Below are positions 10,554-26,474 of a stretch of DNA of 64,000 bases, in pieces. Where the stretch lies: the UHGV virus genome UHGV-0168042; one strand, written 5' to 3'. Within the stretch, counting starts at the first letter, position 1. Every line of letters starts with the position of its first letter. This DNA comes from a virus. The position numbers and the translations under genes were made by a program. Under the pieces are notes generated by a model. That model was not told the origin of the DNA and did no database searches. It was given only the letters and a program-made list of their open reading frames with translations.

Positions 10554-10579
10554 TGTCCTTCCTCCACGGATGACGGATA

Positions 10580-10606
10580 CAAAAAAAGGCCGCACATGGC
10601 GGCCTG
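10580..10606 (-). terminator. Rho-independent terminator on minus strand, immediately upstream of the RBS of 9900-10553
   Basis: Minus strand reads GGCCGCCATGTGCGGCC then TTTTTTT; implies a short leader transcript or sRNA ending here. Confidence 0.45.
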
Positions 10607-10821
10607 CTTTGGCGTTATGACTCCCTACCGCGCTTCGGCTGAAAGTTAATCGTCAAAAGAACCTTCAACGGGAGCCGTTAGCGCGATGGATTATGTGCAG
10701 TTTGTGATTTCCAAAATAGTGTCAACCACTTTTTGTGGATTTTATTTTTTGACCGAAATTTGGCCTAAATCATGTTGATGTAGTTGATTGTTTTTGTAAC
10801 ATAAAACTTCATTTTGTTTAC

Positions 10822-11445
10822 ATGAAGGACGGTGTAGTGAAGTTAAGGGTTTTAGGGACCGCGCTCGCGGCTATGTTGGGATGCGTATCTGTTAATACAG
10901 CCAATGCAACTGCGTTACCTGCACAATTCAGGGCAGGGCAGCAGGTTATGAATAACGCTGGTGGGGATCATTCACAAGCGGCAATTATGGACTTTTGCAA
11001 GAGAGAGGGCATTCCATTACGGCCTGTTGGAACTCAGTTTATTGGTAAAACTGACTTTTGCGTTTTTGCATATACAGCATATCTGACGGACAAAGCTATA
11101 ACAAAAACAGGTTATTCAACCAAAGATACTCTTTCCAGATTAAGTCAGGGATGGCAGCAATTCGAAGTGTATCGCCAGCAAGGATTAGGTGAGTTATTAC
11201 AACCACTTTTTATGCTTGCGTTGGTGCCCGAGGGGCAGCAATTTTTGGTTAAAAAGGGAATGCTTCGCCAAAGTGATATTGCCGGGTTCGATAGCATGAT
11301 GGCTTATGAGCGCAAACTAACCGAGCAGCGAAATAAAAAACCATCTGCTTCATGTGTGCAAAGTAAAACAGCAGAATACAGTGCAGTAGCCGGGCCTTTA
11401 GCCAAACAAATGGCAGAGCAATGGTGTAAAAAATACGGGCAATAA
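10822..11445 (+). CDS. Secreted protein with N-terminal signal peptide (unknown function)
   Basis: 207 aa; MKDGVVKLRVLGTALAAMLGCVSVNTANA signal-like N-terminus; AT-rich promoter region upstream. Confidence 0.5.
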   Translation: MKDGVVKLRVLGTALAAMLGCVSVNTANATALPAQFRAGQQVMNNAGGDHSQAAIMDFCKREGIPLRPVGTQFIGKTDFCVFAYTAYLTDKAITKTGYSTKDTLSRLSQGWQQFEVYRQQGLGELLQPLFMLALVPEGQQFLVKKGMLRQSDIAGFDSMMAYERKLTEQRNKKPSASCVQSKTAEYSAVAGPLAKQMAEQWCKKYGQ

Positions 11446-11465
11446 GTTACGCAGCGGAGGCAGAA

Positions 11466-11858
11466 TTGAAAAGATTGGCTATTGCTTTACTGGCGTCTTT
11501 CCCTTTGATCGCGAGCGCCGGAAATTTACAAGTTAAGTGCGGTCGGTTTGATATAAAAATCTATCCAGATGCCATATTTCTGAATGGGAATAAGGTTGAT
11601 AACGCACACCGAAAAACTGAATCTGACGTAATGAGCTATGTGTTCCAGGAGTATGCGGAGATGGGGGGAACTTACACGCTGTACTCGCTGGATGTTCCTT
11701 CTCGCGGTGATATGACATTATCCCATCAATGGCAGAACGCCGATGGCGAAGCTCTGCGCGAGGTTAAAACAGAAAAATGTGGCACTTTCCATTCTTTTAA
11801 AGGGAAAGCGCCAAATGTTAAATCTGTGCTTGAAAAACAGCGCGCAGGTGAGCTTTAA
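11466..11858 (+). CDS. Small secreted protein with signal peptide (unknown function)
   Basis: 130 aa; MKRLAIALLASFPLIASA then mature domain; RBS GGAGG upstream. Confidence 0.5.
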   Translation: MKRLAIALLASFPLIASAGNLQVKCGRFDIKIYPDAIFLNGNKVDNAHRKTESDVMSYVFQEYAEMGGTYTLYSLDVPSRGDMTLSHQWQNADGEALREVKTEKCGTFHSFKGKAPNVKSVLEKQRAGEL

Positions 11859-12166
11859 ACACCTTTAACCACGGAGATGCCGTTTCCTGCACGATAGCGG
11901 CGGGGAACGGAATTCTCCATCAGGTCACGAATTACTCCCGCCTCATGTAGTTCCTCTGTTTCCCAGTATCTGTTTGTCACCAGATCGAGGCTGGCTATGA
12001 CCTTGTGCCGGTCATTCGGCATAGCCAATTTTTCTGCTATAACCATCAGTGAAAACTCTTCATCCAGTAGGATTTGATACCAGACTTTTGACAGTTCCAA
12101 CTCTCTAATGAGGGTGAAGCGCCGCTCAAGTGTGGCGGCAGAATAAGTGAAATCTATTTTTTTCAT
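11855..12166 (-). CDS. Hypothetical protein
   Basis: 103-aa ORF downstream of the Rha gene on the minus strand. Confidence 0.4.
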   Translation of the reverse strand: MKKIDFTYSAATLERRFTLIRELELSKVWYQILLDEEFSLMVIAEKLAMPNDRHKVIASLDLVTNRYWETEELHEAGVIRDLMENSVPRRYRAGNGISVVKGV

Positions 12167-12225
12167 CGTGCGGATAATCCGATTATTTGGCAGTTAAATC
12201 CCCGGCGTCGCCGGGGATGCAGCAT

Positions 12226-13167
12226 TTAACTAACAATCCAGTCCATAGCAATAACATCCTCTGGAGCTAAATCAATAGCATGGATTTTCCCGTCACGGAT
12301 GGTGCGCCAGTGCTTTCGTGATCCACCTTCGGGCCACACCCATATACCTTCAGGCCAGGAAGAACGACGACACACTGTTGCGTATCCAGTCCTGATCTTC
12401 TCTCTGACGGTATGTAGTGACAGATTATCCTTTGGGCTTTCAGGCACAGGATGGTGGATTGCCTGAAACATCCCCATCTTTGGATGATACCAGCGTTTAT
12501 TGCGTGGTTCTGCCTCCGACATCACCTGCTTAAAGGCTTTCCGGAAGGGGGCCAGGGCCACAATGGAGCGTCGCGCAAGCAAACCATCTGGAGTTAAAAA
12601 CTCATGCGTATCGGTGGGAATCCGGAAAGCGTTAACCAGGTTGCGACATTTGGCTTCAGTCAGGCCACATTTCGCCGCCAGCTGGCGGTAGCCAATGTAG
12701 CCTTCCGGAATATTGCCTTTCTTTATTTGCTCGAGTGTTTCAGCGACCATCGATACTTGTGCTGATACCTCGGCTACCTGGGCATTTACGGCGTTGATCC
12801 GGCGTTCATGCTCAAGATGCATTTGCGCCATTTCAGCCAGGATTTCGGCTTTTGATTTTAACTGTACCCGGGCATTCTCCAGTTCGCGCCAGCGGTCCAC
12901 CAGCCGGGCGGTGAATTCCGGAGAGAGCTGCGCGACGACAATGATGCTGTCTCGTTTTCCTTGTTCGCCTTCAAATATGTAAGCCTTGGAAAATCGACGA
13001 GGGCCAACTGATTGTTTATTTTCAATTTCCACAGATTGTGGAAATTGGATCACACTCTTTTTAGCCAGTGTTTCGATAGTTCTCTTCACACTATCTTGGC
13101 GACTTCCTACCAGTTCCGCGATCTCAATGCTGGTCATTGTCGCTTTTTGAGAGATGGACAGATTCAT
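12226..13167 (-). CDS. Rha-family phage regulatory protein (antirepressor-like), copy 1
   Basis: 313 aa; MTSIEIAELVGSRQDSVKRTIETLA N-terminus typical of Rha family; start ATG overlaps stop of upstream Icd-like gene (ATGA). Confidence 0.65.
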   Translation of the reverse strand: MNLSISQKATMTSIEIAELVGSRQDSVKRTIETLAKKSVIQFPQSVEIENKQSVGPRRFSKAYIFEGEQGKRDSIIVVAQLSPEFTARLVDRWRELENARVQLKSKAEILAEMAQMHLEHERRINAVNAQVAEVSAQVSMVAETLEQIKKGNIPEGYIGYRQLAAKCGLTEAKCRNLVNAFRIPTDTHEFLTPDGLLARRSIVALAPFRKAFKQVMSEAEPRNKRWYHPKMGMFQAIHHPVPESPKDNLSLHTVREKIRTGYATVCRRSSWPEGIWVWPEGGSRKHWRTIRDGKIHAIDLAPEDVIAMDWIVS

Positions 13168-13382
13168 CAGTGCACCTCCACGCAGTTCATTGGCAGATTC
13201 CAGTAATTGAGGATCTCCATCGCATCAAGAGTGAAGCGTGCGGCAAAAATGCAGGGTTCTTCAGGAAGGTATGAACGAGCTTCTGCTTCGGTTGCAGCCA
13301 TGACGCAGATATACAGGTGTTTTTGGCAGGAATAGAAACGCCAGATAAATTCAGAATGAGTTGGGGTAGGGATAGTAGCCAT
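13167..13382 (-). CDS. icd: Icd-like host cell division inhibitor family small protein, copy 1
   Basis: 71 aa; EFIWRF motif shared with second copy at 54099-54323; translationally coupled to Rha. Confidence 0.45.
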   Translation of the reverse strand: MATIPTPTHSEFIWRFYSCQKHLYICVMAATEAEARSYLPEEPCIFAARFTLDAMEILNYWNLPMNCVEVH

Positions 13383-13694
13383 ATTGGCAGCCTCCTTTTG
13401 CTAATTTAAGGAGCTACCGCGTGAGGTTCCAATCTCAATGGCGGTAGCACTGACTGGGTTGGAACTACCGGCGCAAAAGGGAACCGGCCTGCCTTTCGGC
13501 AGCCCAGCCAGCACTACCATTGATCTCTGAGCTAAACGCTACGTATGGCTGTGCGATGGCATGACACAAGAAAAGACGCTTTCGGCGTCTGTGTCGCCTT
13601 TTGCATTATCCGGGGTTCCAATCCCGGCACCCGTTTTTCTAAGGTGCCGTAGAAATATACCCCACGATAATGCCAGGGCGCAACAGTCAGTATT

Positions 13695-13862
13695 TTATGC
13701 TTTGGCGGATTTCTTCCGGGCTTGCTTGCAGGCGTAGGCCATTGCTTTAGCTTTCACTTCATCCAGCTTCCCGGTAATCACTTCTTTTCCGAGAGTGACA
13801 AACCAGTCATAGCAACCGCCAGTAATGTTCTTGATTTGAAAGTTGAGGTAGCGAACAGTCAT
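13695..13862 (-). CDS. Small hypothetical protein (55 aa)
   Basis: ATG with GGGGGAG RBS 6 nt upstream; MTVRYLNFQIKNITGGCYDWFVTLGKEVITGKLDEV...; below ORF-track cut-off. Confidence 0.3.
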   Translation of the reverse strand: MTVRYLNFQIKNITGGCYDWFVTLGKEVITGKLDEVKAKAMAYACKQARKKSAKA

Positions 13863-14182
13863 TTTGACTCCCCCAGCGCGAATAAAGAATGCAGATTATC
13901 GCGTGAGTGGTGGACGACGAGTGATGGGAAAAGACTGTAGTTGTTCATAGTGTAGTGACTCCTTGCTTTCGGAGCCGCCATCGACTGTTCCACGGTCTGG
14001 TGGCGGCGCAATAAAGGCTGGAACACCGTGAGTCAACGGGGGCTTTTCAGCCACCTATATTGCACCGCCATAGGTATGGCGGGGGCAATAATACGAAAAA
14101 CTAAACAGTTTGTCTCAAAAAGTTGACCGGTGTGCCAATCGGTAGTGAATGTACATCGGAGAAATTTACAATTCAACTTAAA

Positions 14183-14212
14183 ATGTTAGAAAACTAATTT
14201 ATTAATTCAATC
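14183..14212. promoter_or_regulatory. Operator-like motif ATGTTAGAAAACTAATTTA (degenerate full site) overlapping the ref stop codon
   Basis: Near-identical 19-mer recurs in reverse orientation at about 43721-43740 and a 15-mer at about 33307-33323. Confidence 0.4.
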
Positions 14213-14772
14213 GCCATCTGATACAACGCCATTTCATCGGCATTGTGCCGTATGAAATCTGCTTTTCCGCCTATTTTTCCATCAGCATGAACAGGGACCA
14301 GCCAGGGATATTGTTCTCGGACCTCGGCTGGCGCTGCGTACTGGTGGTGCCATTTACACAAAGGGAGGACATATTTATGTGCGTTCTCTGCCGTTCTCCC
14401 GAAGATATGGTGCAGGGATACCACTGGGCTATGTTGCCCGTGAATATGGCAGGCAATGCAGGGGAGAGTACCGATAGCGGTCTGTATCCGGCGTTCATCG
14501 GCTGTGAGTGATCTGCCCTTCAGGCCGCGTGACGTGCGTGTTTTTTTGGGCGGAGCGGATACAGCTTTATCTTTTCTCCGCTGTTCATATTGCTTTGCTT
14601 TTTCAATTTTCTTTTGCCGATATTCAGGCGATGCGGCTTTTTCTCTCGCTCGCTGCTGCTGGCGTTGAGCTTGTTGAAGGCGCTTTGCCCTTTGTTCCTC
14701 TCGCCAGGCTGGGTCAGCCAATTTTTGCATGGCTTTTTGTCTCTGTTTCTCCCAATAGCTCTGTTTCTGCAT
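14194..14772 (-). CDS. ref: Ref-family recombination enhancement nuclease (HNH-like)
   Basis: 192 aa; CIACHIHGQHSPVVSLHHIFGRTAENAHKYVLPLCKWHH zinc/HNH-like motif; K/R/Q-rich N-terminus. Confidence 0.6.
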   Translation of the reverse strand: MQKQSYWEKQRQKAMQKLADPAWREEQRAKRLQQAQRQQQRAREKAASPEYRQKKIEKAKQYEQRRKDKAVSAPPKKTRTSRGLKGRSLTADERRIQTAIGTLPCIACHIHGQHSPVVSLHHIFGRTAENAHKYVLPLCKWHHQYAAPAEVREQYPWLVPVHADGKIGGKADFIRHNADEMALYQMAIELIN

Positions 14773-14820
14773 GATGGCTGCCTCTTACTTTTCAGCTATT
14801 TTTCTATGATTGATCAAAAC

Positions 14821-14850
14821 AGTTAGATATTCAAAATTGATTTTCTAACA
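14821..14850. promoter_or_regulatory. Operator-like inverted repeat GTTAGA-N16-TCTAAC upstream of ref
   Basis: AGTTAGATATTCAAAATTGATTTTCTAACA, about 50-78 bp upstream of the ref ATG. Confidence 0.55.
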
Positions 14851-15044
14851 CAAAACATTAATATCATTCCTGATAACTGTTTGGAGGACATGATGCTTAT
14901 AGCTTTAAGTGCGATCCACCAGCCATCTGTGAATGAGATTGGCCTGTTCTATGTGTTGTTTTTCGGGGCGTTGGCGCTACTTGAACTTGGTATTGAGCTT
15001 TTCGCAGTGCTTATGTTTTGCGTCACGATTTTGGGGAAATTTTG

Positions 15045-15668
15045 ATGGTGAAACGTGTTTTGAAAATTTACATCGCGGGGCCGATGACTGGTTATCCAGA
15101 TTACAACCGTGCTGCGTTTAATGCGAAAGCGAGCGAGCTGATGTCTGAAGGGCATATCGTTCTGAATCCAGCTGTGTTACCTGGTGGCCTTTGCCAGAGT
15201 GAATACATGGATATTTGCCTGGCAATGGTGCGTTCTGCTGATGCGATCTATCTGCTCAATCAATGGGAAGAATCGGTTGGTGCTCGCGCAGAGCACGCGC
15301 TGGCTGAAAAGCTGGGGCTGACTGTAATTTATGAGTCACAAACCAACATTGAATGCCAGGTTGCTCCGCATATTTACCGTGAACTGGTAAATGCGTTACG
15401 TGATGTTGCTATTGAATGTCACGGCACGGATCAGCTTCGCGCCCGCTTAAGCAAAACCCTTTCCAGTTACCTGTCTTTGGCTGAAGGATACAACCTCCGG
15501 CAGCGGAGAATGGTCAAATTAATCACGCGTTTATCTCAATCCCTGGCAAATGCCGAACCAACTAATCCGCTACCTAATGACGCAATGAATTATCTGAAGT
15601 CATGCGGCGTTGTTTCTGAAGATGCAGTTCGTTTTGTGGAGTTTATGTCTCAGAGGATGTCAGCGTGA
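15045..15668 (+). CDS. DUF4406 / nucleoside 2-deoxyribosyltransferase-like protein
   Basis: Internal Met start MVKRVLKIYIAGPMTGYPDYN; KIYIAGPMTG is the characteristic N-terminal motif of this family. Confidence 0.5.
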   Translation: MVKRVLKIYIAGPMTGYPDYNRAAFNAKASELMSEGHIVLNPAVLPGGLCQSEYMDICLAMVRSADAIYLLNQWEESVGARAEHALAEKLGLTVIYESQTNIECQVAPHIYRELVNALRDVAIECHGTDQLRARLSKTLSSYLSLAEGYNLRQRRMVKLITRLSQSLANAEPTNPLPNDAMNYLKSCGVVSEDAVRFVEFMSQRMSA

Positions 15669-15982
15669 GCTGGCGGGGATGGGGAAGGGCGGAAATCATG
15701 ATACTCCGCCAGTGCGCCGGGACTATGACAGTCGTGAGTATTGGGAGGCTGATCGGGCGTACCGGTAGTGCTGTCAGAACCAAAGCGCGGCAGCTGCGGA
15801 TCTGCATGATTCTGAAAGGAGACTTTCACCCGTCAGCCAAATACCGGCAGGGCGATATAGAACTGGCACGGCAGCTTCATCGGTGTGGTGTTCCCCGCCG
15901 TGAGATCGCAGAAAAACTCGAAATGCCCTTGAGCATGATTAATCAGTACGTTTATTTCGAAAGGAGAGTACATGAAGTCTGA
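15665..15982 (+). CDS. Small HTH-like regulatory protein
   Basis: 105 aa; overlaps upstream stop by 4 nt; ...GVPRREIAEKLEMPLSMINQYV resembles an HTH. Confidence 0.4.
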   Translation: MSWRGWGRAEIMILRQCAGTMTVVSIGRLIGRTGSAVRTKARQLRICMILKGDFHPSAKYRQGDIELARQLHRCGVPRREIAEKLEMPLSMINQYVYFERRVHEV

Positions 15983-16460
15983 AGGTTTAACGCCAGCACA
16001 ACTGGCAGAGCGTAACGCTGAGTATGTAACGGAAATTTCCCGACTTGAGAAAGAACGCTCGGCGCTGGCGGCGGAGAATGCTGGGCTGAAACATGCAATG
16101 GCTGTAACTCTTGAGCATGTGTCGGTCACGGATGCAGGGCAGGCCGGAGTTGCTGCAATGATTATCAACGATGCCCTGCACCACAGCGAAACTCCAGCCA
16201 CCGATGCTTTTCTGGCTGAAATTCGTGCGGAGGCTCGCAACGAGGGGATTAACTATACCGCAAGCCGTCTTGCTGCTGCTTTCAACCACGGATTTATCAA
16301 TAAGTCTTTACGTGAAGTTTTCGACGTTACACGCATGATTCTGTCAGCGAAAGAAGAGTTGGCTAATGAACCGCACCCGATTGATGGCCTGTCCGGTGAA
16401 TATGCGGAGAAATCCCTTGAAGAATGGGCGGAACAGATTCGCAAAGGAGCTGACAAGTGA
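15972..16460 (+). CDS. Ead/Ea22-like family protein (paralog 1)
   Basis: 162 aa; shares LAAENAGLK and PATDAFLAEIRAEA segments and C-terminal IRKG-x-x-K/Q end with paralogs at 16876, 17673, 22718, 23224. Confidence 0.5.
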   Translation: MKSEGLTPAQLAERNAEYVTEISRLEKERSALAAENAGLKHAMAVTLEHVSVTDAGQAGVAAMIINDALHHSETPATDAFLAEIRAEARNEGINYTASRLAAAFNHGFINKSLREVFDVTRMILSAKEELANEPHPIDGLSGEYAEKSLEEWAEQIRKGADK

Positions 16461-16867
16461 AGAAGATGATTTTTGTCGCGGCATTGTTGGTGAATATCCA
16501 ACAAGTGCATGCTTCAGCAGCTATTGTAGCCTCTACCGCCGCGACTACGGCTGCTGTAGCTGCTGCGAACTCTGCGAATATCGCAAACCAACAGGCACAG
16601 CGTGCTGCTAATGCATCAGCCAGCGTTCACTCAATCACCATTAAGAGCAGTAAGCAAAATCTGGGATTCATAACGTGCGGCACGCGTTCTAATGAAGCTG
16701 TAGGTTCACTTGGATGTACGGTATATGGGGGTAGTGAGAATAGAGAAATTCCATGGAAAACGTGGCCCGGATACGTTCTTGGCTCGAAGCTCCCGGCCAG
16801 TTATGAAGTAAACGCCGTATCGTTTGATCACTATAACGGCGTGGCAACGGTCTATTTTGCATATTGA
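16457..16867 (+). CDS. Secreted Ala/Thr-rich protein with signal peptide
   Basis: GTG start overlapping upstream stop; MKKMIFVAALLVNIQQVHA signal-like N-terminus. Confidence 0.45.
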   Translation: MKKMIFVAALLVNIQQVHASAAIVASTAATTAAVAAANSANIANQQAQRAANASASVHSITIKSSKQNLGFITCGTRSNEAVGSLGCTVYGGSENREIPWKTWPGYVLGSKLPASYEVNAVSFDHYNGVATVYFAY

Positions 16868-16875
16868 GGCTCCGC

Positions 16876-17676
16876 ATGAAATTCTCCAAATTTTCTGAGT
16901 TGGTGAATCGTATTTTGTTGAATCGTATTTTGTCCAACAACCACAGCCATCGTCGCGATATGGATGTAACGATCGTTGTTCATTCGCCTGGCAGCATTGG
17001 TTCAACACCCTCAGTTGAGGTTCAGTCAATTCACGCTGGTTTTGATTGGGATTCCGGGAAAGTGCTGATTTTCCCAGCACAGCCACTGACCACGCTAACA
17101 CCAGAACAGATTACTGATATTACTGATAGTGTGCGCAAAGGTCAGTCCTGGCACGCATATCAGGAATACAAGAAGCATCAAGAGCAGTTGGAAAAATTAT
17201 CGATTGAACTTGATACCGCAAAACAGCGCATTGCAGAGCTGGAGGGTAATCGCGCGGCGCTGGCTGCGGAGAATGCGAGACTGAAGGCGATATGTGAGGA
17301 TCGCCGCACGTTCATTATGAATGGCGTGCAGCTTGGTTTTATCAAGGTGCCAACAGTGGAAATAGATCCAGCTCTTGAAACAATTCGTATCGCCCTATCA
17401 CCACAAAAAACCACTCCTGCGACCGACACTTTCCTGGATGAAGTGAAGACTGAAGCACGCAAGGAGGGCGCTTACTTTGTGGCGAATAGAATGCTGGCTG
17501 CCTGGGAAGCTGGTTTTATTGATGATACTGCGAAGAACGCCGCGGATATTGCCCGGATGATTCTTACCTCTACTGAGTTTATGGCTAATGCGCGGGAAGG
17601 CGATTTTGACCGCTCATTCTCTGATGGTGTTCTCGAAGATATCGCTGAACAGCTTCGCAAAGGAGGCAGCCAGTGA
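16876..17676 (+). CDS. Ead/Ea22-like family protein (paralog 2)
   Basis: Track ORF from TTG 16864; ATG at 16876 preferred; contains AALAAENARLK and ends QLRKGGSQ. Confidence 0.5.
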   Translation: MKFSKFSELVNRILLNRILSNNHSHRRDMDVTIVVHSPGSIGSTPSVEVQSIHAGFDWDSGKVLIFPAQPLTTLTPEQITDITDSVRKGQSWHAYQEYKKHQEQLEKLSIELDTAKQRIAELEGNRAALAAENARLKAICEDRRTFIMNGVQLGFIKVPTVEIDPALETIRIALSPQKTTPATDTFLDEVKTEARKEGAYFVANRMLAAWEAGFIDDTAKNAADIARMILTSTEFMANAREGDFDRSFSDGVLEDIAEQLRKGGSQ

Positions 17677-18314
17677 GCGAGCTTTACTATCAGACGTTAC
17701 GTGAACGTTTTTCACCGAAACCAGCGCCTAAATGCTCTGTTTGTGGCGAGGAAATGTCAATGCAGCGCATATCTGGATCACATGTTGTTTATGCCTGTTC
17801 CGGCATGGAGGACGACGGATGCTTCAAAACTGGACGAACTTATGCTGACGAGCATTACAAAAAATCGCGCATAACAGTAGTTGATGATAGCGATCCTGAT
17901 GTGATTGAACTGCTGGAAGAGAACATGGAGATGGCTCTAACGCTTGAGAAGCTGCGTGTTGAGCTGGAGGCTGCTAAACAGCGTATTGCCGAATATGAAA
18001 GCAATTGCGGGGCGATGGTGGCGGAATGCCAAAGCAAAAAAGCAGCTCTTGAGGCAATTCTTAGCCATTGCCCAATTAATCATCCAGATATAGACATCGC
18101 ATGTATAGCGAACATCGCTCATAACGAATTAGGCGGGGCGAAAAGCACTACATCTAAGGCATACCTTGTAGAAATACAGGCACAAGGGGTGGAGGCATTC
18201 GCTTTGACGATGCGCGATACCGGAGATGATCCATTTTTTGATTCCGTTGCTTCTGCTTGCGCGGATGCAGCTGATAGGTTCGCTGCCCAGCTTCGAAAAG
18301 GAGGCAAACAGTGA
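17673..18314 (+). CDS. Ead/Ea22-like family protein with N-terminal zinc-ribbon (paralog 3)
   Basis: GTG start inside conserved junction; CSVCGEEM...YACSG...DGC; ends QLRKGGKQ. Confidence 0.5.
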   Translation: MSELYYQTLRERFSPKPAPKCSVCGEEMSMQRISGSHVVYACSGMEDDGCFKTGRTYADEHYKKSRITVVDDSDPDVIELLEENMEMALTLEKLRVELEAAKQRIAEYESNCGAMVAECQSKKAALEAILSHCPINHPDIDIACIANIAHNELGGAKSTTSKAYLVEIQAQGVEAFALTMRDTGDDPFFDSVASACADAADRFAAQLRKGGKQ

Positions 18315-18559
18315 GTAATACCGCACGACTACAGCTTGGTTTTTTACCGCTATCAAAAACCATCGTGTTGGCAAAAATGCGTGACTTAGGGGATGGAACA
18401 AAACGTCGTGTCGGCAATGATCGCGGTCGTGATGTAACCAACGAGGCCGCACAACTCGTTTGGCATCTAGTCATGGCTGAAGGCGGTGAAATTAATTGGG
18501 AGCTGGATGATGGTTCTCGCATGGTATTAAAGGCAGAAAAGCAGGAGCCACCACAGTGA
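18311..18559 (+). CDS. Hypothetical early protein
   Basis: 82-aa ORF, GTG start overlapping upstream stop. Confidence 0.4.
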   Translation: MSNTARLQLGFLPLSKTIVLAKMRDLGDGTKRRVGNDRGRDVTNEAAQLVWHLVMAEGGEINWELDDGSRMVLKAEKQEPPQ

Positions 18560-18849
18560 ATATCGACACCACGATAACGATTGATACGGCCCTAAATACC
18601 GGTCTGGCACTTCTCGGTTGGCTTTACATCATGTCCAGTACATGGCGATGGCTGGGTTCCATTTTCCTGAAACAGTGGAAAAAACGGCGCAAACAGGAAT
18701 TACGCCAGAAGGCATTAGAAGCGTTCTATGACGCATTTGAACTTAGCCGCATTGAACCAGGCACAACAGCCAGGATAGCGACAAAAGGCGACCTGATGAT
18801 AGTGATGTTCCGACAGGAGAAAGCAAATGGCAGCAAAGCGAATGACTAA
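18556..18849 (+). CDS. Hypothetical small membrane protein
   Basis: 97 aa; one hydrophobic segment (GLALLGWLYIMSSTW). Confidence 0.4.
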   Translation: MNIDTTITIDTALNTGLALLGWLYIMSSTWRWLGSIFLKQWKKRRKQELRQKALEAFYDAFELSRIEPGTTARIATKGDLMIVMFRQEKANGSKAND

Positions 18850-19051
18850 TCGCGAACTTGTTGATGCCGCGATTGAACTTGCTGGCGATTTTTATTCCAT
18901 GATGGGGTACACGCATCGCCCAGGCTTCAAATATTGGGAGTCTCCGCACCCGCAAGAGCAACGGGTATTTCAAATGGCCTGTCGCGCTTTTGAAGTTATT
19001 CGCGGTTCTGATGTGATGGACGCGGTTGCTGATTTGGAGGATGAAGAGTGA
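18827..19051 (+). CDS. Hypothetical early protein
   Basis: 74-aa ORF in the plus-strand operon. Confidence 0.35.
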   Translation: MAAKRMTNRELVDAAIELAGDFYSMMGYTHRPGFKYWESPHPQEQRVFQMACRAFEVIRGSDVMDAVADLEDEE

Positions 19052-19359
19052 ACACAATTAAAGAAATGCCGGTAGAACGTGATGAATATGGCTGCTGGAC
19101 ACATCCGGAGTATGAAAAGTTTTGCGCAGGTCGTGAATATATATCCACTGAGGAATTTGACGCCTGGATGAAGGAAAATAATCTTCAGTGGACTATTCGC
19201 AGTATGGATGAAGATGATTTTGATCTGGACGCAGCTGGTCCCGATATTGCCGCCTGGGAACCGGAGCGACCAGAGGGTGAAGGCTGGTTTGTTGGCTCTA
19301 TTCATGACACTGAAGATGGTCCAGTTTGTATCTGGCTGCGGGAGAAGGTTGCCGCATGA
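19048..19359 (+). CDS. Hypothetical early protein
   Basis: 103-aa ORF; acidic. Confidence 0.35.
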
Positions 19360-20048
19360 TCCAGACTATGCATGAAGTGAATTTATATAGCCGTATTGAT
19401 GGTTCTGGCTACAGAAACATATGGGTTGTTGGTGATCTGCATGGTTGCTACACCAGACTGATGTCCGAACTCCATCGTGTGGATTTTGACCCGGCGCAGG
19501 ATTTACTGATATCGGTTGGCGACCTTATCGATCGCGGTACTGAAAATGTCGAATGTCTGGAACTATTGCAGATGCCCTGGTTCAGGGCAGTAATGGGGAA
19601 CCATGAGCGGTTGATGCTTGATGCGTTAAGTCCTGATGGCAACGTGAATAACTGGCTAATGAATGGCGGACAATGGTTCTTCATGCTGGGCACTGATCAG
19701 GAAATATTAGCCAAGGCGCTGGTGGAGCTGGTAAAGCGTCTGCCATATATCATTGAGTTGAACACCGGGCATGAAACTATCGTTATAGCCCATGCCGACT
19801 ATCCAGGTGGAGAGTACCAGTTCGGTAAGGATGTGTCGTTTTTTGATGTTGTCTGGTCGCGCAGTCGCGTCGGTGATTCGATAGATGGCATTGGTGGAGA
19901 AATCACAGGCGCAGATCGCTTTATCTTTGGGCACACACCGGTACGAAGACCAAAAGCATACTGGAATCAGCACTACATAGACACGGGCGCGGTTTTTTGC
20001 GGAAATCTGACGCTAATGCAGGTGAAGGGAGGGCAGCTTAAAGTCTGA
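19356..20048 (+). CDS. Serine/threonine protein phosphatase (lambda PPase / PrpA-like metallophosphatase)
   Basis: Start ATG overlapping upstream TGA; [20 protein letters not shown] metallophosphoesterase motifs. Confidence 0.75.
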
Positions 20049-20074
20049 TCAAATCATTTACGCACTCAAAATCA

Positions 20075-20104
20075 CGTTAGAACATTGATTTTAGTTTTCT
20101 AACA
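20075..20104. promoter_or_regulatory. Operator-like inverted repeat GTTAGA-N16-TCTAAC upstream of the 20147 operon
   Basis: CGTTAGAACATTGATTTTAGTTTTCTAACA, about 45-70 bp upstream of the ATG at 20147. Confidence 0.55.
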
Positions 20105-20146
20105 TATTATTTTACCGATCGGAACAAAACAGAGTCGGTATGCATT

Positions 20147-21142
20147 ATGAGTGCAATAATCACCCCATATGTCGTAAATGAAACTGGTGTGGCTGTCTTT
20201 CCTGTAGATAAGCCCACCAGCAATTACATCGGCGCAGGACGCCGTTTTCTTATATCCCCATTGCCGCGTGAACAGGCTGAAAACACCCCTGATGGTGTCG
20301 TTGACCTGAATTATTCACTGGTTGCCAACCAGTCACTGGCACCCTTTTTTCAAAGTGAGCGTGTATTTAACGCGTTAGGTGGTGAGGATTCTCTCGTTCA
20401 CTGGGTTAGCACCAACATTCACGATTGCCAGGCGCATGATAAGCGCGATTGCAGCCACCAGCTAACCACCCATTTCTATAACGGTTCTGCCGTTCGCCTG
20501 TGCTGGAAGCATGATGCGGAATACATGATGAAGGGATACGGCAAGCTGGAAGACCAACTGTCACGGAATCGCGCCAACTGGATTATGAACTGGGCTGCCA
20601 GCGAGTTAAAACTTCCGCCAGATCGCGATCTGAGCATGGTTGAACTCACCTTTTGGGCCATTCGCCGGAATCTTAAAGACGAACTGCCTGATGAAGCTGG
20701 TCGCATTGCATTTTGTCAGCCAAAAACTGAAATCCCTACCGGTACGCTGAAAGAATCAGATATCACCTGGGAGCACAGTACCCGCGAGCTGGTGGACATA
20801 ACCGCAGAGCAGATCGTCAACCTGTCTGTAGATGAGGATTCCGGCCTGCTTTATATGCGCCGACCAAAAGCGGTCCTCGGTAAAAGCCCGGCTTATCTCC
20901 GGTTTGTGGTTTCTCGTCCGTGCATCGGATGCGGTGGCAAAGTTAACCACCCGTTCATGTACCGCGCCCGCTCGTTAAACGAACACGACCGCTGGGCTGT
21001 TCCTCTTTGCGATGACTGCGCCAGAAGCGCAGAAAACGATGTTCGGGCATGGGAAAAAGCACATGGCATACGCCTTTACGTAGCCGCTAACCAGCTTTTT
21101 GACTTCGCCATCGAGCGCGGAGTGATCACGTTCAATAACTGA
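20147..21142 (+). CDS. DUF968-like protein with C-terminal Ref/HNH-like zinc motif
   Basis: 331 aa; C-terminal CIGCGGKVNHPF...NEHDRWAVPLCDDC resembles the Ref HNH-like motif. Confidence 0.45.
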   Translation: MSAIITPYVVNETGVAVFPVDKPTSNYIGAGRRFLISPLPREQAENTPDGVVDLNYSLVANQSLAPFFQSERVFNALGGEDSLVHWVSTNIHDCQAHDKRDCSHQLTTHFYNGSAVRLCWKHDAEYMMKGYGKLEDQLSRNRANWIMNWAASELKLPPDRDLSMVELTFWAIRRNLKDELPDEAGRIAFCQPKTEIPTGTLKESDITWEHSTRELVDITAEQIVNLSVDEDSGLLYMRRPKAVLGKSPAYLRFVVSRPCIGCGGKVNHPFMYRARSLNEHDRWAVPLCDDCARSAENDVRAWEKAHGIRLYVAANQLFDFAIERGVITFNN

Positions 21143-21158
21143 TGAGGTGGATCAAAAA

Positions 21159-21839
21159 ATGAAAGAACGCGGGATGATTTTTAACGATGAGATGGTCAGG
21201 GCCATCCTCGAAGGAAGGAAGACGCAGACTCGCCGACCTGTAAAAAATGTCAGGGCCGATAACTGCCTAGTTATCCGTAAACCGACAAAGAAACGCAATG
21301 GTGTCTATACCCACGTTATGGATGCACCTGAACATGGTTTATGCCCGTTCGGTAACGTTGGTGATCGCATATGGGTCCGTGAGGCGTGGGCGATATTAGG
21401 CAATGAGGATGGTTGCAGTGTGGACTGGAACGACAACCTTTGTCGTGGCGATGAGAAGAACGCAGCAAGGATTTATCGGGCCAGTTGTGAGCAAAAGCCT
21501 GGTGATTACGGTTTGTGGTCGATACCCGATGATGCCGACTGGAAACCTCACACTGTGAATGAAAAGTTTGATGGCGGGTGGCGTCCATCAATTCACATGC
21601 CGCGCTGGGCTTCGCGTATTTTGCTGGAAATTACCGACGTGCGTGTGGAACGGCTGCGTGATATGAGCGAGGCAGATGCTAAAGCAGAAGGCGCATCTCC
21701 GGCGATGTACAAAATTACGCCGCCGGAAGCTGTTTATCGCGTTGGTTTTGGTGACATCTGGCGCAGTATTTACGGGCAGGATAACTGGCTATCTAACCCG
21801 TGGGTATGGGTAATCGAGTTTAAGCGCGTTCAGGAATAA
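21159..21839 (+). CDS. ASCH-domain-like protein
   Basis: Preferred ATG start with GAGGTGG RBS; N-terminal MVRAILEGRKTQTRR fits the GxKxxExR ASCH signature loosely. Confidence 0.4.
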   Translation: MKERGMIFNDEMVRAILEGRKTQTRRPVKNVRADNCLVIRKPTKKRNGVYTHVMDAPEHGLCPFGNVGDRIWVREAWAILGNEDGCSVDWNDNLCRGDEKNAARIYRASCEQKPGDYGLWSIPDDADWKPHTVNEKFDGGWRPSIHMPRWASRILLEITDVRVERLRDMSEADAKAEGASPAMYKITPPEAVYRVGFGDIWRSIYGQDNWLSNPWVWVIEFKRVQE

Positions 21840-21842
21840 ACC

Positions 21843-22721
21843 GTGAGTATGCATCAAGTTGTCAGCTTTTCAGGTGGACGAACATCGGCTTATCTCGTTC
21901 ATCTGATGGAAGCACAGCGAAAAGCTGGCGCTAGCGTCCATTTCATTTTTATGGATACCGGCTGTGAACATCCTCTGACGTATCGCTTTATTCGTGAGGT
22001 TGTGAAGTTCTGGAATGTACCGCTAACGGTGTTGCAGGTCGATATAAATCCAGAACTTGGGCAGCCAAATGGTTATACGGAATGGGAACCAAAGGATATT
22101 CAGACGCGAATGCCGGTGCTTAAACCGTTTATGGACATGGTTAAAAAGTACGGTACGCCATACATCGGCGGCGCGTTCTGTACTGACAGGCTAAAACTAA
22201 CCCCTTTCACGAAATATTGCGATGACCATTTTGGGCGAGGGAATTACATCACATGGCTGGGTATTCGTGCGGACGAACCCCGTAGGCTGAAACCGAAACC
22301 GGGCGTCCGGTATCTTGCCGAGCTGTCAGATTTTGATAAGTCGGATGTTATCCGGTGGTGGCGAAAACAACCTTTTGATTTGCAAATCCCGGAGCACCTC
22401 GGGAACTGTGTTTTTTGCATCAAAAAGTCAACGCAAAAGCTGGGGCTTGCATGTAAAGACGAACCAGGTCTGATGCGGGTTTTTAATGAACTGGTTACAG
22501 GCAAACACGTCAGGGATGGTCATCGCAGAACAGATAAAGACGTTATGTACCGTGGTCACCTGACGCTTGACGGGATTGCCAGAATGTATGCCGACAGCGA
22601 CTACAGAAATTTGTATCAGGCGATGGTGCAGGCCAAGCGGTTTGATACTGGTTCGTGTTCCGAATCATGTGAAATCTGGGGTGACCAATTGGAGTTGAAA
22701 TTCGAAGAGGTAGTGGCATGA
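21843..22721 (+). CDS. PAPS reductase-like PP-loop ATP pyrophosphatase family protein
   Basis: 292 aa; N-terminal SFSGGRTS PP-loop (SGGxDS-type) motif. Confidence 0.65.
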   Translation: MSMHQVVSFSGGRTSAYLVHLMEAQRKAGASVHFIFMDTGCEHPLTYRFIREVVKFWNVPLTVLQVDINPELGQPNGYTEWEPKDIQTRMPVLKPFMDMVKKYGTPYIGGAFCTDRLKLTPFTKYCDDHFGRGNYITWLGIRADEPRRLKPKPGVRYLAELSDFDKSDVIRWWRKQPFDLQIPEHLGNCVFCIKKSTQKLGLACKDEPGLMRVFNELVTGKHVRDGHRRTDKDVMYRGHLTLDGIARMYADSDYRNLYQAMVQAKRFDTGSCSESCEIWGDQLELKFEEVVA

Positions 22722-23227
22722 CAAACAAAATTGACTATCAAAAGCTTCGTGAAATTGCTGAAAAAACAAAAATTGCTGGTGAAGCGCCTGTAATGCCTTT
22801 CGATCAGCGAATTAATGCGCTTAACGATTTTATGAAGCACTTTTCGCCAGATATCGCGTTGGCATTATTGGATGAAGTTAAACGCCTGGAGGACACAAAT
22901 ATTGATGCTATGTGTCGAATTGCAGAGCTTGAGACTAATCTCGCGGCGCTGGCAGCGGAGAATGAGCTGGCTCGTAAGGCAGTTCAGGCATTCTGCGATG
23001 TTGTTGGCGACAACACCGAGGTTATCGCTGAGGTGGTTGGGCGAGATGGCGTTCTGGTTATTTTGGAGGCCATGAAGGCAACAGGAAATATGCCAGCCAC
23101 CGATGCTTTCCTGGCTGAAGTACGGGCGCAGGGCGTGGAGATGTTTGCGGAGTGTGCATACACGCTTGAACATCATGATCACGCAGTAGCCTTCGCCGCT
23201 GAGCTTCGCAAAGGAGGCAACCAGTGA
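22718..23227 (+). CDS. Ead/Ea22-like family protein (paralog 4)
   Basis: 169 aa; KIDYQKLREIAEK N-terminus, AALAAENELARK, PATDAFLAEVRAQG, ends ELRKGGNQ. Confidence 0.5.
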   Translation: MTNKIDYQKLREIAEKTKIAGEAPVMPFDQRINALNDFMKHFSPDIALALLDEVKRLEDTNIDAMCRIAELETNLAALAAENELARKAVQAFCDVVGDNTEVIAEVVGRDGVLVILEAMKATGNMPATDAFLAEVRAQGVEMFAECAYTLEHHDHAVAFAAELRKGGNQ

Positions 23228-23919
23228 GCAAGATTGACTATCAAGAACTGCGCGAGGCGGCGGAGAAGGCTACGAAAGGTAAGTGGGCTGTTGAATTCGA
23301 CGATGAGATTTACTCCACTGACGGCATAAACCATGAGCAAATAGCTATGGTGTTCAGTGAAAACGAATCTCGTGATGCTGAATTCATCGCCGCAGCCAAT
23401 CCGGCTACCGTCTTGGCGCTGCTGGATGAACGGGAAAGAAACCAGCAATACATCAAACGCCGCGACCAGGAGAACGAGGATATTGCGCTAACGGTAGGGA
23501 AACTGCGTGTTGAGCTGGAAGGCAAAGACAGCAAAATAGCCAATCTTACCGCCGAACGCGATGCTCTTCGTGAAGGTGAGATGGGCGACGCTAGGCATAG
23601 CAACACACGGGCCGCAGCTGATATCTACTTCCAACTGGTCGAGGAGTGCGAAATTCCTGCTGGCGGATCTCTGGTCGAGTACGTTGACGATATGCGCGAG
23701 AAGCTGGAAGCCGCAGAGAAGCGCATTGCAGAGTTAGAAAGTGGTTCTCAGGCACAAAAGTTAGTTGAAGCAATCATTGTTGCGATAGAAAACGAACAGG
23801 AAAGGCTTTTTGATGAAGATTACCTAATGGATTCGAAAGAATGCATTGACGTAATTCGTGAAGAAGTAAAGCGATGGAATGATTCCCGCGCCGCTGGCAT
23901 TCGCATCAAAGGAGAGTGA
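23224..23919 (+). CDS. Ead/Ea22-like family protein (paralog 5)
   Basis: 231 aa; GTG start in conserved junction; MSKIDYQELREAAEKATKGKW. Confidence 0.5.
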   Translation: MSKIDYQELREAAEKATKGKWAVEFDDEIYSTDGINHEQIAMVFSENESRDAEFIAAANPATVLALLDERERNQQYIKRRDQENEDIALTVGKLRVELEGKDSKIANLTAERDALREGEMGDARHSNTRAAADIYFQLVEECEIPAGGSLVEYVDDMREKLEAAEKRIAELESGSQAQKLVEAIIVAIENEQERLFDEDYLMDSKECIDVIREEVKRWNDSRAAGIRIKGE

Positions 23920-23920
23920 T

Positions 23921-24184
23921 ATGGCAACTTTGACAAAAAAAGAACAAGCATGGTTGAGCGAATTACAGGACGTTCTTGATCGCTGCCCATCACCGAAAAA
24001 AATTGGTTTTTACACCATTGGCGATAAAAGCATTTACCTGTATGACCTGCGCCGCATGGATGAAATCATGGAGGCTCTTGATAATCGTTCGTCAATGGAT
24101 TGGTGTGTTGCTGTTCATGATATGAATGCCGGATTTGATGAAAAGATTTTATTCCCCTCATCAGTTGAAAGCACTGCGGGTTAA
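23921..24184 (+). CDS. Hypothetical early protein
   Basis: ATG preceded by AGGAG; 87 aa (MATLTKKEQAWLSEL...). Confidence 0.4.
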   Translation: MATLTKKEQAWLSELQDVLDRCPSPKKIGFYTIGDKSIYLYDLRRMDEIMEALDNRSSMDWCVAVHDMNAGFDEKILFPSSVESTAG

Positions 24185-24194
24185 GGAGTAACAC

Positions 24195-25385
24195 ATGACC
24201 ACTATTACCAAAGAACGTATTGAATTGTTCATTAAAAATCCGCTTGAAAACGGGCTTACCCGTGGTGAACAAATGGAACTGGCACGGATTGCGCTGGCAT
24301 CGCTGGAAGCAGATCCAGTTAAACGAGTTAACTCAGATCAGATGCGCCGAGTCTGCTTAGAAGCTAATCGCCATTTAGATAAATATGACGCGATGGCGAA
24401 AGAGGTAAATAAGTTGCTTGGCCGCATCGCCCCGCCAGCGCCGGTAGTGCCGGAAGAAATCAGTACGACCCACACAATGCTGCCCGCCATGAGTGATCAG
24501 TTGATGGCGTTCGGTTATGTGAAGGGGTGGAATGCCTGCCGCGCGGCTATGCTTCATGCCGGAAACTTTCGGAAAAACGCGAATTCGTCAACCAATAATT
24601 TTCGGGATATTGCGGAAACGTCAACCAACTCTCCGGTAATTCCTGGTGAGGTGTTGTCCGCAATCCTGAAGTTTGCCAGAGTTCGTGCTGATTTCGATGA
24701 TTTTGACGGCGACAGACGAGGTATCGGTGATTGTCTGGATGAGGCTGAGCAAGAGCTTATCGTTACCATTAACAAATATGCCAGCCAGTTGGCAGCAGAA
24801 CCGATAGCGACTAATGACGTTCGAGAGCAGCAGACAGCCGTTCCACCAATACAGGCTGATGTCGCACAAGCAATTGAAAATCTCAAGCAGAAGTTAGTGG
24901 AATGCAATCGCTATAACTACTGCGCAGATGCAGTTAAAGGCGTAGAGGATGCCTGCCGTGCTGTTAGCTATAGCCAAGCCGACAATCAACCAGCATCTGG
25001 CAACCAGGCTGCCGAATCCAATCGCGGTAATGAGTGGACCGGCAATCCTGATATTGATAACGCCATCATCATGCTCGACCGCATAGATACGCTGGAAAAT
25101 TGCGATGATGACCGTATTGAGGCTGTTAAGGCTGTTTTGCGCAGACTGGCTGTCAACTCTCCGGTAACTCCGGATGGCTGGATAAGCTGTAGTGAGCGAA
25201 TGCCGGATACCAAAACAGCCGTTCTTGTTGCCGTGGAGTTTGACAGGAAAGGTGACTGGCGAATGAAATGGGCGACTTACATCCCTGGTCATCCTGACGC
25301 TAATGATGGGTGGATAATTCCTGGTGCGTCGTGGAAACCGTCACACTGGATGCAGCTACCAGAACCGCCACAGGAGGCGAAATGA
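24195..25385 (+). CDS. DUF551-like C-terminal domain protein
   Basis: 396 aa; C-terminal GWISCSERMP...WATYIPGHPDANDGWIIPG...SHWMQLPEPP resembles DUF551. Confidence 0.45.
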   Translation: MTTITKERIELFIKNPLENGLTRGEQMELARIALASLEADPVKRVNSDQMRRVCLEANRHLDKYDAMAKEVNKLLGRIAPPAPVVPEEISTTHTMLPAMSDQLMAFGYVKGWNACRAAMLHAGNFRKNANSSTNNFRDIAETSTNSPVIPGEVLSAILKFARVRADFDDFDGDRRGIGDCLDEAEQELIVTINKYASQLAAEPIATNDVREQQTAVPPIQADVAQAIENLKQKLVECNRYNYCADAVKGVEDACRAVSYSQADNQPASGNQAAESNRGNEWTGNPDIDNAIIMLDRIDTLENCDDDRIEAVKAVLRRLAVNSPVTPDGWISCSERMPDTKTAVLVAVEFDRKGDWRMKWATYIPGHPDANDGWIIPGASWKPSHWMQLPEPPQEAK

Positions 25386-25642
25386 TGGATGTAAAAGAGA
25401 AGGTTTTGCAGGTGATGCGTTCCCGTGCTGCCCTACAAGAGAAAGCTCTCGGCGGTGAATATCCATTCACGATAGCAACCTGGAATCTGCGGTTGGCAAT
25501 GGAGAAGGAATTTCCTGATGAAGAATGGCGTTCGGCAGATTTGCGCAAAATTCTTATGGAGCTGGCTAAAGACGGAACAGTATCCAAAGATACCCATGCC
25601 AGCCGGATTGGTCAGGCGGTATGGAGACTGGAGGTGAGGTAA
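25382..25642 (+). CDS. Hypothetical early protein
   Basis: ATG overlapping upstream TGA (ATGA); 86 aa. Confidence 0.4.
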   Translation: MMDVKEKVLQVMRSRAALQEKALGGEYPFTIATWNLRLAMEKEFPDEEWRSADLRKILMELAKDGTVSKDTHASRIGQAVWRLEVR

Positions 25643-25923
25643 TGGCTAACCTGCAACTTGCCGTTAAAGGTGAATACTTCGATGCCATGATTCGAGGGGA
25701 GAAAACGGAAGAGTATCGCCTGTGTAATGACTACTGGAATAAGCGCCTCGTTAACCGTAAGTATGACCGCCTGATTATCACAAAGGGATATCCGAAGCGC
25801 GAAGACTTCAGTCGCAGAATTGACGTCCCGTATAACGGATATGAAATAAAAACAATCACACATCCGCACTTCGGTGATAAACCGGTAAAGGTGTTCGCGA
25901 TAAAAGTGAAGATTAATAGCTAA
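25642..25923 (+). CDS. ASCH-domain-like small protein
   Basis: Start overlaps upstream TAA; GEYFDAMIRGEKTEEYR contains GxKxxExR signature. Confidence 0.4.
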   Translation: MANLQLAVKGEYFDAMIRGEKTEEYRLCNDYWNKRLVNRKYDRLIITKGYPKREDFSRRIDVPYNGYEIKTITHPHFGDKPVKVFAIKVKINS

Positions 25924-25946
25924 ATTTCAATTAACACGGAGTAATT

Positions 25947-26240
25947 ATGTGGCGCGGTAATAATCATGGCGGAAGCCAGATGATACTTACCGAATATACT
26001 TTCGACCACAAAACCAATAAATCACGTTCAGTATATTTGCTTCGGCACAATAGCCGCGTAAGAAATACCGTGCTGGAGCAAAATCTGACCGTCGAAATGG
26101 ATAATTTAGGAAGCTTCAAGCCAACAATATCGCTTGATGATTTTCCGTGTGGTTTAAGCGAAAGAGAAGCAATGCTGAAATTAGCAGAATGGTTACAAAG
26201 ATTAAGCATTGCTATTGAAGATAACTGGATTCAACCATAA
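25947..26240 (+). CDS. Hypothetical protein
   Basis: 97-aa ORF; start uncertain. Confidence 0.3.
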   Translation: MWRGNNHGGSQMILTEYTFDHKTNKSRSVYLLRHNSRVRNTVLEQNLTVEMDNLGSFKPTISLDDFPCGLSEREAMLKLAEWLQRLSIAIEDNWIQP

Positions 26241-26264
26241 TGAAAAACAGAAAGAAAGATTGCT

Positions 26265-26474
26265 ATGGCAACATTTAGTAAATTCGCAGTAATTATTATT
26301 TTATTAATTCCCCTCACTGTTACAGCAGGGGAACAGCAACATTGCACAAAAGAGAATGAACACCCTTTCATCGTTATTCAATGCGATGACGGAACGGTGA
26401 CTGTGGTTAATGTAAGAAATGACCGTGTAGCTGTTTGCCGTAAAGGCGAACCATGCAAGGAAATAAAACTATGA
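26265..26474 (+). CDS. Small secreted Cys-containing protein
   Basis: 69 aa; MATFSKFAVIIILLIPLTVTA signal-like N-terminus; 5 Cys in mature part. Confidence 0.4.
   Translation: MATFSKFAVIIILLIPLTVTAGEQQHCTKENEHPFIVIQCDDGTVTVVNVRNDRVAVCRKGEPCKEIKL

Follow-up and report, generated by a model that had tools for sequence, protein, structure and literature searches.

Four predicted exported proteins in two genomic settings of a D6-like, P1-related phage-plasmid

E. coli, Salmonella and Shigella commonly harbour phage-plasmids of the P1/D6 type, whose variable accessory genes decide the competition with other phages as well as effects on the host. Here we describe a computational analysis of four genes, designated A, B, C and D, of the virus genome UHGV-0168042, each of which encodes a small protein with a predicted Sec signal peptide. 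The analysis covered a stretch of 64,000 nucleotides (nt), referred to as the window. The initial annotation had regarded these genes as secreted cargo of a phage genome, without an obvious phage function and of a kind that often mediates lysogenic conversion, such as surface modification or exclusion.

Small envelope-targeted phage proteins are known from several systems. T5 Llp, phi80/N15 Cor and T4 Imm/Sp block receptors or phage entry and are made during infection, and envelope proteins are also encoded by lambda-type morons such as bor and lom. The closest described systems are D6 orf79 and the sim operon of P1, in whose record simC is annotated as superimmunity gene and simA and simB as accessory genes. 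The Sim proteins are small, each carries an N-terminal Sec signal peptide, and their genes lie beside the C4/icd/ant ImmI region. The sim genes are non-essential for plaque formation (PMC10695390), and D6-like prophages have been reported to diverge around simB (PMC6799933). In phage D6 itself, orf79 ("putative superimmunity accessory function", SimB-like) and orf80 occupy the same locus as A and B in the window and share the same upstream region.

That the window derives from a phage was borne out by our analysis. It is a D6-like, P1-related phage-plasmid, as judged from the annotated neighbouring genes (tail and baseplate genes, mat, the Rha/Ant anti-repressor, icd, ref, humD and phd/doc) and from the C4 antisense RNA of the ImmI region. 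Megablast searches with positions 10000-27500 matched phage D6 (94.5% identity over 53% of the query) and many non-mobilizable plasmids of about 90 kb from E. coli, Salmonella and Shigella, the best of which was CP058021.1 (96.8% identity over 80%); more than 1000 PLSDB records match this region.

Four genes with predicted Sec signal peptides

All four open reading frames (ORFs) are present, stop codons included, at the coordinates listed in Table 1. Their N-termini share a basic n-region, an uncharged h-region of 10-15 residues and an AXA-type cleavage site, namely ANA/T in A, ASA/G in B, VHA/S in C and VTA/G in D, where the slash marks the predicted cleavage. The predicted signal peptides are MKLRVLGTALAAMLGCVSVNTANA for A (cleavage before TA, encoded by 10837-10908), MKRLAIALLASFPLIASA for B (before GN, 11466-11519), MKKMIFVAALLVNIQQVHA for C (before SA, 16457-16513) and MATFSKFAVIIILLIPLTVTA for D (before GE, 26265-26327). 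The heuristic used for this prediction asks for a positively charged n-region, an uncharged hydrophobic h-region of about 8-15 residues, a polar c-region and small residues at positions -3/-1. Applied to the 90 non-overlapping ORFs of at least 60 amino acids (aa) in the window, it flagged five, i.e. A, B, C, D and an SPFH lipoprotein gene at 39421-40248. P1 SimA, SimB and SimC served as positive controls, and all three pass. The number of flagged ORFs expected by chance is 0.15 when internal windows of the same proteins are scored and 0.9 +/- 1.0 for composition shuffles, and none of 200 shuffles reached five.

We regard the comparative evidence for the predicted signal peptides as stronger than the heuristic. 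Every family contains diverged homologues whose N-terminal sequence is different and yet signal-peptide-like. Such swapped signal peptides are found, for example, in the homologues P0007 of A, P0011 and P0013 of B, and P0079, P0081, P0083 and P0084 of D, and variants of C carry the different signal peptides MAKFQRAIIFLAMLSASHLSHA and MKKIVIALSLALLTSTAANA. Furthermore, the mature parts of A, B, C and D contain 4, 2, 2 and 4 cysteines, respectively, and these even, conserved numbers are as expected for disulfides formed in the periplasm. The four ORFs are genuine genes with conserved N-termini resembling Sec-type signal peptides, which agrees with the initial annotation, and export of all four proteins is predicted from their sequences.

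The ATG of A at 10822 has no Shine-Dalgarno sequence upstream. The GTG at 10837, which is the start used by PGAP in CP058021.1, has AAGGA 7 nt upstream, and the signal peptide is identical from either start. The TTG start of B is preceded by GGAGG 7 nt upstream, an ideal spacing, and AGGAG stands at ideal spacing before the GTG start of C. Public records differ: A is annotated from an internal Met in NZ_CP032875.1 (L017 10948-11445), which is collinear with the window there, and CP058021.1 (L001 3632-3859) calls B from Met56 as a 75-aa C-terminal fragment. Since these starts drop the signal peptides, annotation pipelines under-report export.

None of the four proteins gave a match above threshold in Pfam, NCBIfam or PADLOC, and searches of PDB profiles with the alignments of A and C found no match. 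All four families are already contained in PHROGs, where their function is unassigned, so that the description as genes without an obvious phage function stands. By hhalign, A, B and C are unrelated to one another; the four genes are mutually unrelated and do not constitute one system. In tblastn searches of the GenBank phage collection A, B and D had no match, and these three are known mainly from plasmid and prophage records. Taken together, the four are uncharacterised additions to a known class of phage-encoded exported accessory proteins and, as such, modestly surprising.

The fifth flagged ORF (39421-40248, minus strand) encodes a 275-aa SPFH/Band-7 protein, likewise predicted to be exported, with the canonical lipobox LCLTG/C. 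Before it lies a 66-aa ORF (40229-40429, minus strand), the product of which contains a strong transmembrane segment.

The A/B slot between mat and the immunity region

A and B form a two-gene cassette on the plus strand, opposite to both of its minus-strand neighbours, mat and the ImmI operon. The stops of B and of the pmgF-like gene overlap by 4 nt, and the G+C content of the cassette is 0.445 as compared to 0.479 for the window. On the mat side, the sequence is 97-98% identical to D6 and to locus L004 up to position 10879. In D6 and many plasmids the left flank is kept up to 10879 and the right flank from 11896 onwards, and between them lie the genes for a SimB-like protein of 270-298 aa and for a 116-aa membrane protein (orf80). 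The N-domain of the SimB-like protein is 45-52% identical to P1 SimB, and the protein has its own signal peptide. In D6 and L004, which have the SimB-like gene and orf80, only the first 14 codons of A remain, and L005 carries a divergent A allele followed by the SimB-like gene and orf80. The same flanks were found in 131 PLSDB plasmids, 47 of which contain A and B. Among the 17 IMG/VR loci with A, this gene adjoins mat in every case and is followed by B in 14 and by the SimB-like gene/orf80 in three. As they occur at the same place after A, B and the SimB-like gene are positional alternatives, and a homologue of SimB holds exactly the position of B in relatives of the element. The slot is polymorphic, indeed hypervariable.

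The protein encoded by D6 orf79 is, like A and B, predicted to be exported, with the signal peptide MFFIKNGKRFSSTILATVVALFVPTLTFA cleaved before YDF. The mature proteins are unrelated, however, and D6 lacks B and an intact A, whereas the window lacks the SimB-like gene and orf80. The annotated start of D6 orf79 (L002 2837-3733) is probably chimeric, since its first approximately 14 codons are the remnant of the A signal peptide; translation probably begins 21 codons further downstream, at a Met that opens the protein's own signal peptide MFFIKNGKRF...TFA/YDF. In CP058021.1 (L001), an insert of about 2.4 kb (3861-6279) with a dCTP deaminase gene and two hypothetical genes lies between B and the pmgF-like gene, which indicates that the A/B slot takes further cargo.

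The AT-rich intergenic region between mat and A presumably carries the promoter of A and B. It is about 97% conserved with D6 and L004, and in these two it stands before the SimB-like gene. No consensus terminator was found for A/B. The hairpin upstream of mat (10605-10587) is the first strong terminator on the minus strand downstream of the ImmI operon. Since it lies beyond A, transcription reading through from ImmI/ant would be antisense to B and A. Like lambda-type morons, the cassette is an independently oriented insert of lower G+C content between conserved phage genes, encodes predicted envelope proteins and is variably present among close relatives. Unlike these morons, it has no recognisable promoter/terminator pair.

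Both A and B evolve under purifying selection. For A, the proportion of non-synonymous differences (pN) is 0.22-0.31 compared to a saturated proportion of synonymous differences (pS), and for B the ratio of non-synonymous to synonymous substitution rates (dN/dS) is about 0.1. Purifying selection also acts on the part of A that encodes the signal peptide. Between the window and pF719-4, mat (dS 0.07) and the signal peptide of A (dS 0.055) are nearly identical, whereas mature A is synonymously saturated (pS 0.88, pN 0.31). The contrast between the conserved flank and signal peptide and the saturated mature part argues that the A alleles are old and have been swapped by recombination just after the signal peptide. 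Positive selection on A was also considered and was rejected on the grounds of saturated synonymous sites and a pN lower than pS.

Mature A, with its four conserved cysteines, is all-alpha in a confident model with a predicted local distance difference test score (pLDDT) of 84.6. Inside B, a run of six G (Table 1) is the exact site at which four database versions (P0015, P0017, P0020 and P0021) shift frame, diverging at EYAEM/GG. This could be due to homopolymer sequencing errors or to slipped-strand on/off switching.

Homologues of both genes also occur outside phage-plasmids. P0007 is 57% identical to A and has a signal peptide and a ribosome-binding site of its own that differ from those of A. 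Its gene stands alone among insertion sequence (IS) elements of a conjugative E. coli plasmid of 168 kb, close to genes for an outer-membrane protein of the Ail/Lom family and for an M60 lipoprotein (mucinase) resembling SslE/YghJ. The A variant has one PLSDB record. A homologue of B that has lost one of the two cysteines is located between IS1 and ISEc10 on an IncF/IncN plasmid. Being found alone among IS elements on conjugative plasmids, the homologues of A and B behave as mobile cargo. A scan of species-representative genomes found no relatives of A.

Genes C and D within the accessory operon

C and D are embedded in a long co-directional operon of accessory genes, which encodes DUF4406, Ea22-like paralogues, a metallophosphoesterase, DUF968, PAPS-reductase-like and ASCH proteins and others. 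The interior of the operon contains one weak promoter-like site on the plus strand (24673) and no strong plus-strand terminator, and around C and D no promoter- or terminator-like sites of their own were found. The GTG of C and the stop codon of the preceding Ea22-like gene overlap (GTGA), as do the stop of D and the start of the following gene (ATGA). These overlaps, together with the lack of a nearby promoter or terminator, argue for translational coupling of C and D within the operon, and the two genes do not show the architecture of morons.

In protein C, the signal peptide is followed by an Ala/Thr-rich linker (about aa 20-57) and a C-terminal domain of about 75 aa, which contains two invariant cysteines and ends in YF-x-Y. 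The AlphaFold2 (AF2) model of C is poor (pLDDT 43). One database source labels C as "Prophage exported protein", and the annotators of phage KLB16 recorded "transmembrane domain and signal peptide" for its homologue. In relatives of C from IMG/VR (L093-L096), which are otherwise similar, the linker differs by whole AAAT units, present in 1 to 4 copies, which suggests tandem-repeat length variation.

C is flanked by Ea22-like paralogues. These coiled-coil proteins are encoded on the plus strand at 15972-16460, 16876-17676, 17673-18314, 22718-23227 and 23224-23919 and have near-identical C-terminal ends (...ATDAFLAE[IV]RA...LRKGG..); the 3' end of the gene at 15972-16460 alone matches 764 E. coli genomes. 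Ea22-like repeats flanking cassettes such as C are probably recombination joints.

Of 5426 complete E. coli genomes, 35 matched at least 80% of a 601-bp query around C. In the closely related plasmid NZ_CP032875.1, Ea22-like genes take the place of C, and it follows from these two observations that C is dispensable. The chromosome of strain VR50 contains a lambdoid prophage in which C, 100% identical, lies downstream of O/P-like replication genes. Homologues of C are also found in phage Av-05 (Vequintavirinae) and in two 45-kb phages, grouped there with other small early genes. The Vequintavirinae are known as virulent phages, and the presence of C in Av-05 makes it unlikely that its function is limited to lysogenic conversion. 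In being small and targeted to the envelope, Llp, Cor, Imm and Sp, which come from phages including virulent ones, parallel C, and we take this likeness as a lead only. Llp and Cor belong to the lipoproteins, in contrast to B, C and D, which have no lipobox. Sequence similarity is absent, and in the loci examined C does not lie beside genes for receptor-binding proteins.

D belongs to a small family of predicted exported proteins of 66-72 aa. Its mature peptide of 48 aa has four conserved cysteines in the pattern HC...QCDDGTVTVV...VC...C. The exact sequence of D is very common and confined to contigs of up to 200 kb, where it is always part of a block, 97aa-D-~249aa-9Xaa, that lies upstream of humD and phd/doc. 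Other temperate phages carry relatives of D in their early or accessory regions. Large repetitive proteins (NHL, zinc-finger and He_PIG repeats) among the matches of D in the representative library were dismissed as spurious. The distribution and the operon setting of C and D point to an action in lytic growth rather than in lysogenic conversion.

Table 1. Coordinates of the genes and other features of the window
Feature	Position	Strand	Remarks
Gene A, predicted exported protein	10837..11445	+	202 aa; 207 aa from ATG 10822
Gene B, predicted exported protein	11466..11858	+	130 aa, TTG start, 2 conserved Cys, PHROG 13864
G6 homopolymer inside B	11663..11668	+	sequence ATGGGGGGA
Gene C, predicted exported protein	16457..16867	+	136 aa, PHROG 8805
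Gene D, predicted exported protein	26265..26474	+	69 aa, ATG start, PHROG 20764
Long co-directional accessory operon containing C and D	15018..27488	+	about 12 kb
mat (maturation control), left flank of the slot	9900..10553	-	annotated in CP058021.1 and D6
Strong intrinsic-terminator-like hairpin and T-run, just upstream of mat	10587..10605	-	7 pairs (6 G-C), TTTTTTT
AT-rich intergenic region mat/A	10596..10836	.	G+C 0.40 vs 0.48 in the window
Right flank of the slot: pmgF-like gene, ant/Rha anti-repressor, icd (ImmI operon)	11855..13382	-	convergent with A/B
C4 antisense RNA of the ImmI region	13437..13524	-	Rfam RF01695, 76.7 bits, E 9e-14

Candidate roles and further features of the element

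Overall, we consider two situations to be represented by the four genes, an envelope-acting cassette in the case of A and B and coupled operon members in the case of C and D, a reading whose chances of being right or wrong we judge to be about evenly balanced. All four products would be small, Sec-exported and disulfide-bonded periplasmic proteins. The A/B module would act in the envelope of the plasmid-carrying cell, where its most likely role might be that of a barrier to the entry of superinfecting phage DNA, as described for P1 Sim, and its allelic variety would be kept up by recombination. C and D would be made together with the accessory operon and act in the periplasm during phage development. 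An exclusion or envelope role of A/B appears plausible by position only, and superinfection exclusion as their actual activity is put forward tentatively, as a possibility that may well prove wrong. For these genes, we infer both the timing of expression and the exclusion activity. The earlier idea of secreted cargo serving exclusion or conversion fits A and B reasonably well, given a cassette in a recombination hot spot by the immunity region, the SimB-like gene at the position of B and the homologues on plasmids. It does not fit C and D, in view of their overlaps within the operon, the lack of signals of their own, the occurrence of C in Av-05 and in a lambdoid prophage, and that of D in early regions.

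Several observations weigh against the reading that we favour. Export was predicted with our own n/h/c and -3/-1 heuristic only. No family of the PADLOC-DB models matches any of the four proteins at E<=1, and no structural neighbours were found for the confident model of A, so that its fold offers no clue to function. In the mat/A intergenic region no consensus sigma-70 site and no recognisable A/B promoter were detected. Apart from the shared 5' remnant, blastp and tblastn comparisons of A, B and C with SimA, SimB and SimC gave no match, and hhalign of A, B and C against the Sim proteins gave probabilities of at most 3%. The window contains no homologue of SimA, SimB or SimC. Membership in the Sim family thus fails on homology, and A/B may at most work like Sim. 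In addition, the P1 sim operon lies upstream of c4, at the 5' end, whereas A/B are located at the 3' end of ImmI, downstream of the ant operon and beside mat, and the positional analogy is weak because P1 SimB itself is only a "putative accessory" protein. Finally, the A homologue beside the Ail/Lom protein and the SslE-like mucinase suits a role in host fitness equally well.

Such a role is the main rival to exclusion by A/B. A and B, and perhaps C and D, would then be secreted factors that alter the envelope or the interaction with the animal host rather than acting on phages, for instance in serum or colicin resistance or in colonisation. Besides the setting of P0007, the B homologue between two IS elements and the orientation and lower G+C content of the cassette, which are typical of morons, speak in favour of it. 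Copies outside phages are rare, however, with the single PLSDB record for the A variant and a B copy that is short of one cysteine; known virulence factors show no similarity to these proteins, a Sim-type gene takes the place of the cassette in alternation, and in Av-05, a member of a subfamily known as virulent, C has no lysogen to convert. We rate a benefit to the host as unlikely. Slightly less likely still, and concerning chiefly C and D, is that the proteins assist the phage's own lytic programme from the periplasm, where they would time lysis, guard progeny from re-adsorption to debris or inhibit a host enzyme. T-even and T5 phages are known to make early exported proteins of this kind (T4 Sp, rI; T5 Llp). 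The embedding and translational coupling of C and D and the early clusters with C homologues are consistent with this explanation; the missing similarity to T4 Sp, rI or T5 Llp and the dispensability of C argue against it. It overlaps with, and is compatible with, the action during phage development that we favour for C and D.

Two further explanations concern the N-termini. These might be uncleaved membrane anchors, or in the case of A a lipoprotein signal, and the proteins would be tethered to the membrane. In favour of this, LAAMLG/C in the A allele of the window conforms to the loose lipobox pattern of PROSITE, another moderately hydrophobic stretch, rich in Ala/Thr, follows the predicted cleavage site of C, and a transmembrane domain was noted by the KLB16 annotators for the C homologue. 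The cysteine in the signal peptide of A is replaced by Gly in P0003, P0004 and P0008, however, with the AXA-type site retained, so that it is not conserved family-wide, and M-L-G-C is non-canonical at -3 and -2 with respect to the lipobox [LVI][ASTVI][GAS]C. Moreover, small residues at -3/-1 after a short h-region of 10-15 residues, as present in all four proteins and their diverged homologues, are typical of cleaved signals. Membrane tethering is accordingly improbable. Very improbable is that some of the ORFs are not real genes or that their true starts lie downstream, without a signal peptide. The inconsistent RefSeq/GenBank starts of A and B and the TTG and GTG codons of B and C might suggest this, but the proposed starts have strong Shine-Dalgarno sequences, and the N-terminal regions are conserved as protein and replaced by other signal peptides instead of random sequence. 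Furthermore, selection on the signal-peptide region of A is purifying, and other records annotate full-length versions.

Returning to the cassette as an envelope-acting module, a more far-reaching and rather speculative form of this proposal, which we consider unlikely, would be that A and an interchangeable partner, either B or the SimB-like gene/orf80, constitute an unrecognised polymorphic periplasmic superinfection-exclusion module of D6-like phage-plasmids. A would then represent a new all-alpha fold with two disulfides, the conserved signal-peptide region would serve as the recombination joint for the exchange of mature-domain alleles of ancient divergence, and exclusion among competing phage-plasmids would be allele-specific.

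As to the remainder of the element, no site with three or fewer mismatches to the P1 C1 operator consensus was found, which probably means an immunity specificity other than that of P1. Near A, B, C and D, the search for a -22 box of P1 late promoters found none. Directly upstream of the C4 antisense RNA, a match to the isrK family of Hfq-binding small RNAs is located at 13569-13647 (minus strand, 59.4 bits). A Tad2-like (Thoeris anti-defence 2) domain protein adjoins a dUTPase (29839-30516 and 30531-31025, both on the minus strand), and this pair stands upstream of a tyrosine recombinase gene at 31913-32941. A stretch of low G+C content (6001-8000, 0.384) contains an ORF on the plus strand (7388-8047) for a 219-aa coiled-coil protein with a hydrophobic N-terminus; the corresponding stretch of NZ_CP032875.1 lies near RelE/HigA-type toxin-antitoxin genes.

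At present, the gain is mainly one of annotation, i.e. correct start codons, four predicted exported proteins and a start of D6 orf79 that is probably chimeric. Should A/B and the SimB-like alternatives turn out to act as allelic exclusion modules, this would account for the divergence around simB that has long been noted, and a tractable two-gene system would be available for studying how periplasmic proteins stop the entry of phage DNA. C would then be a candidate for an early periplasmic factor common to temperate and virulent coliphages.

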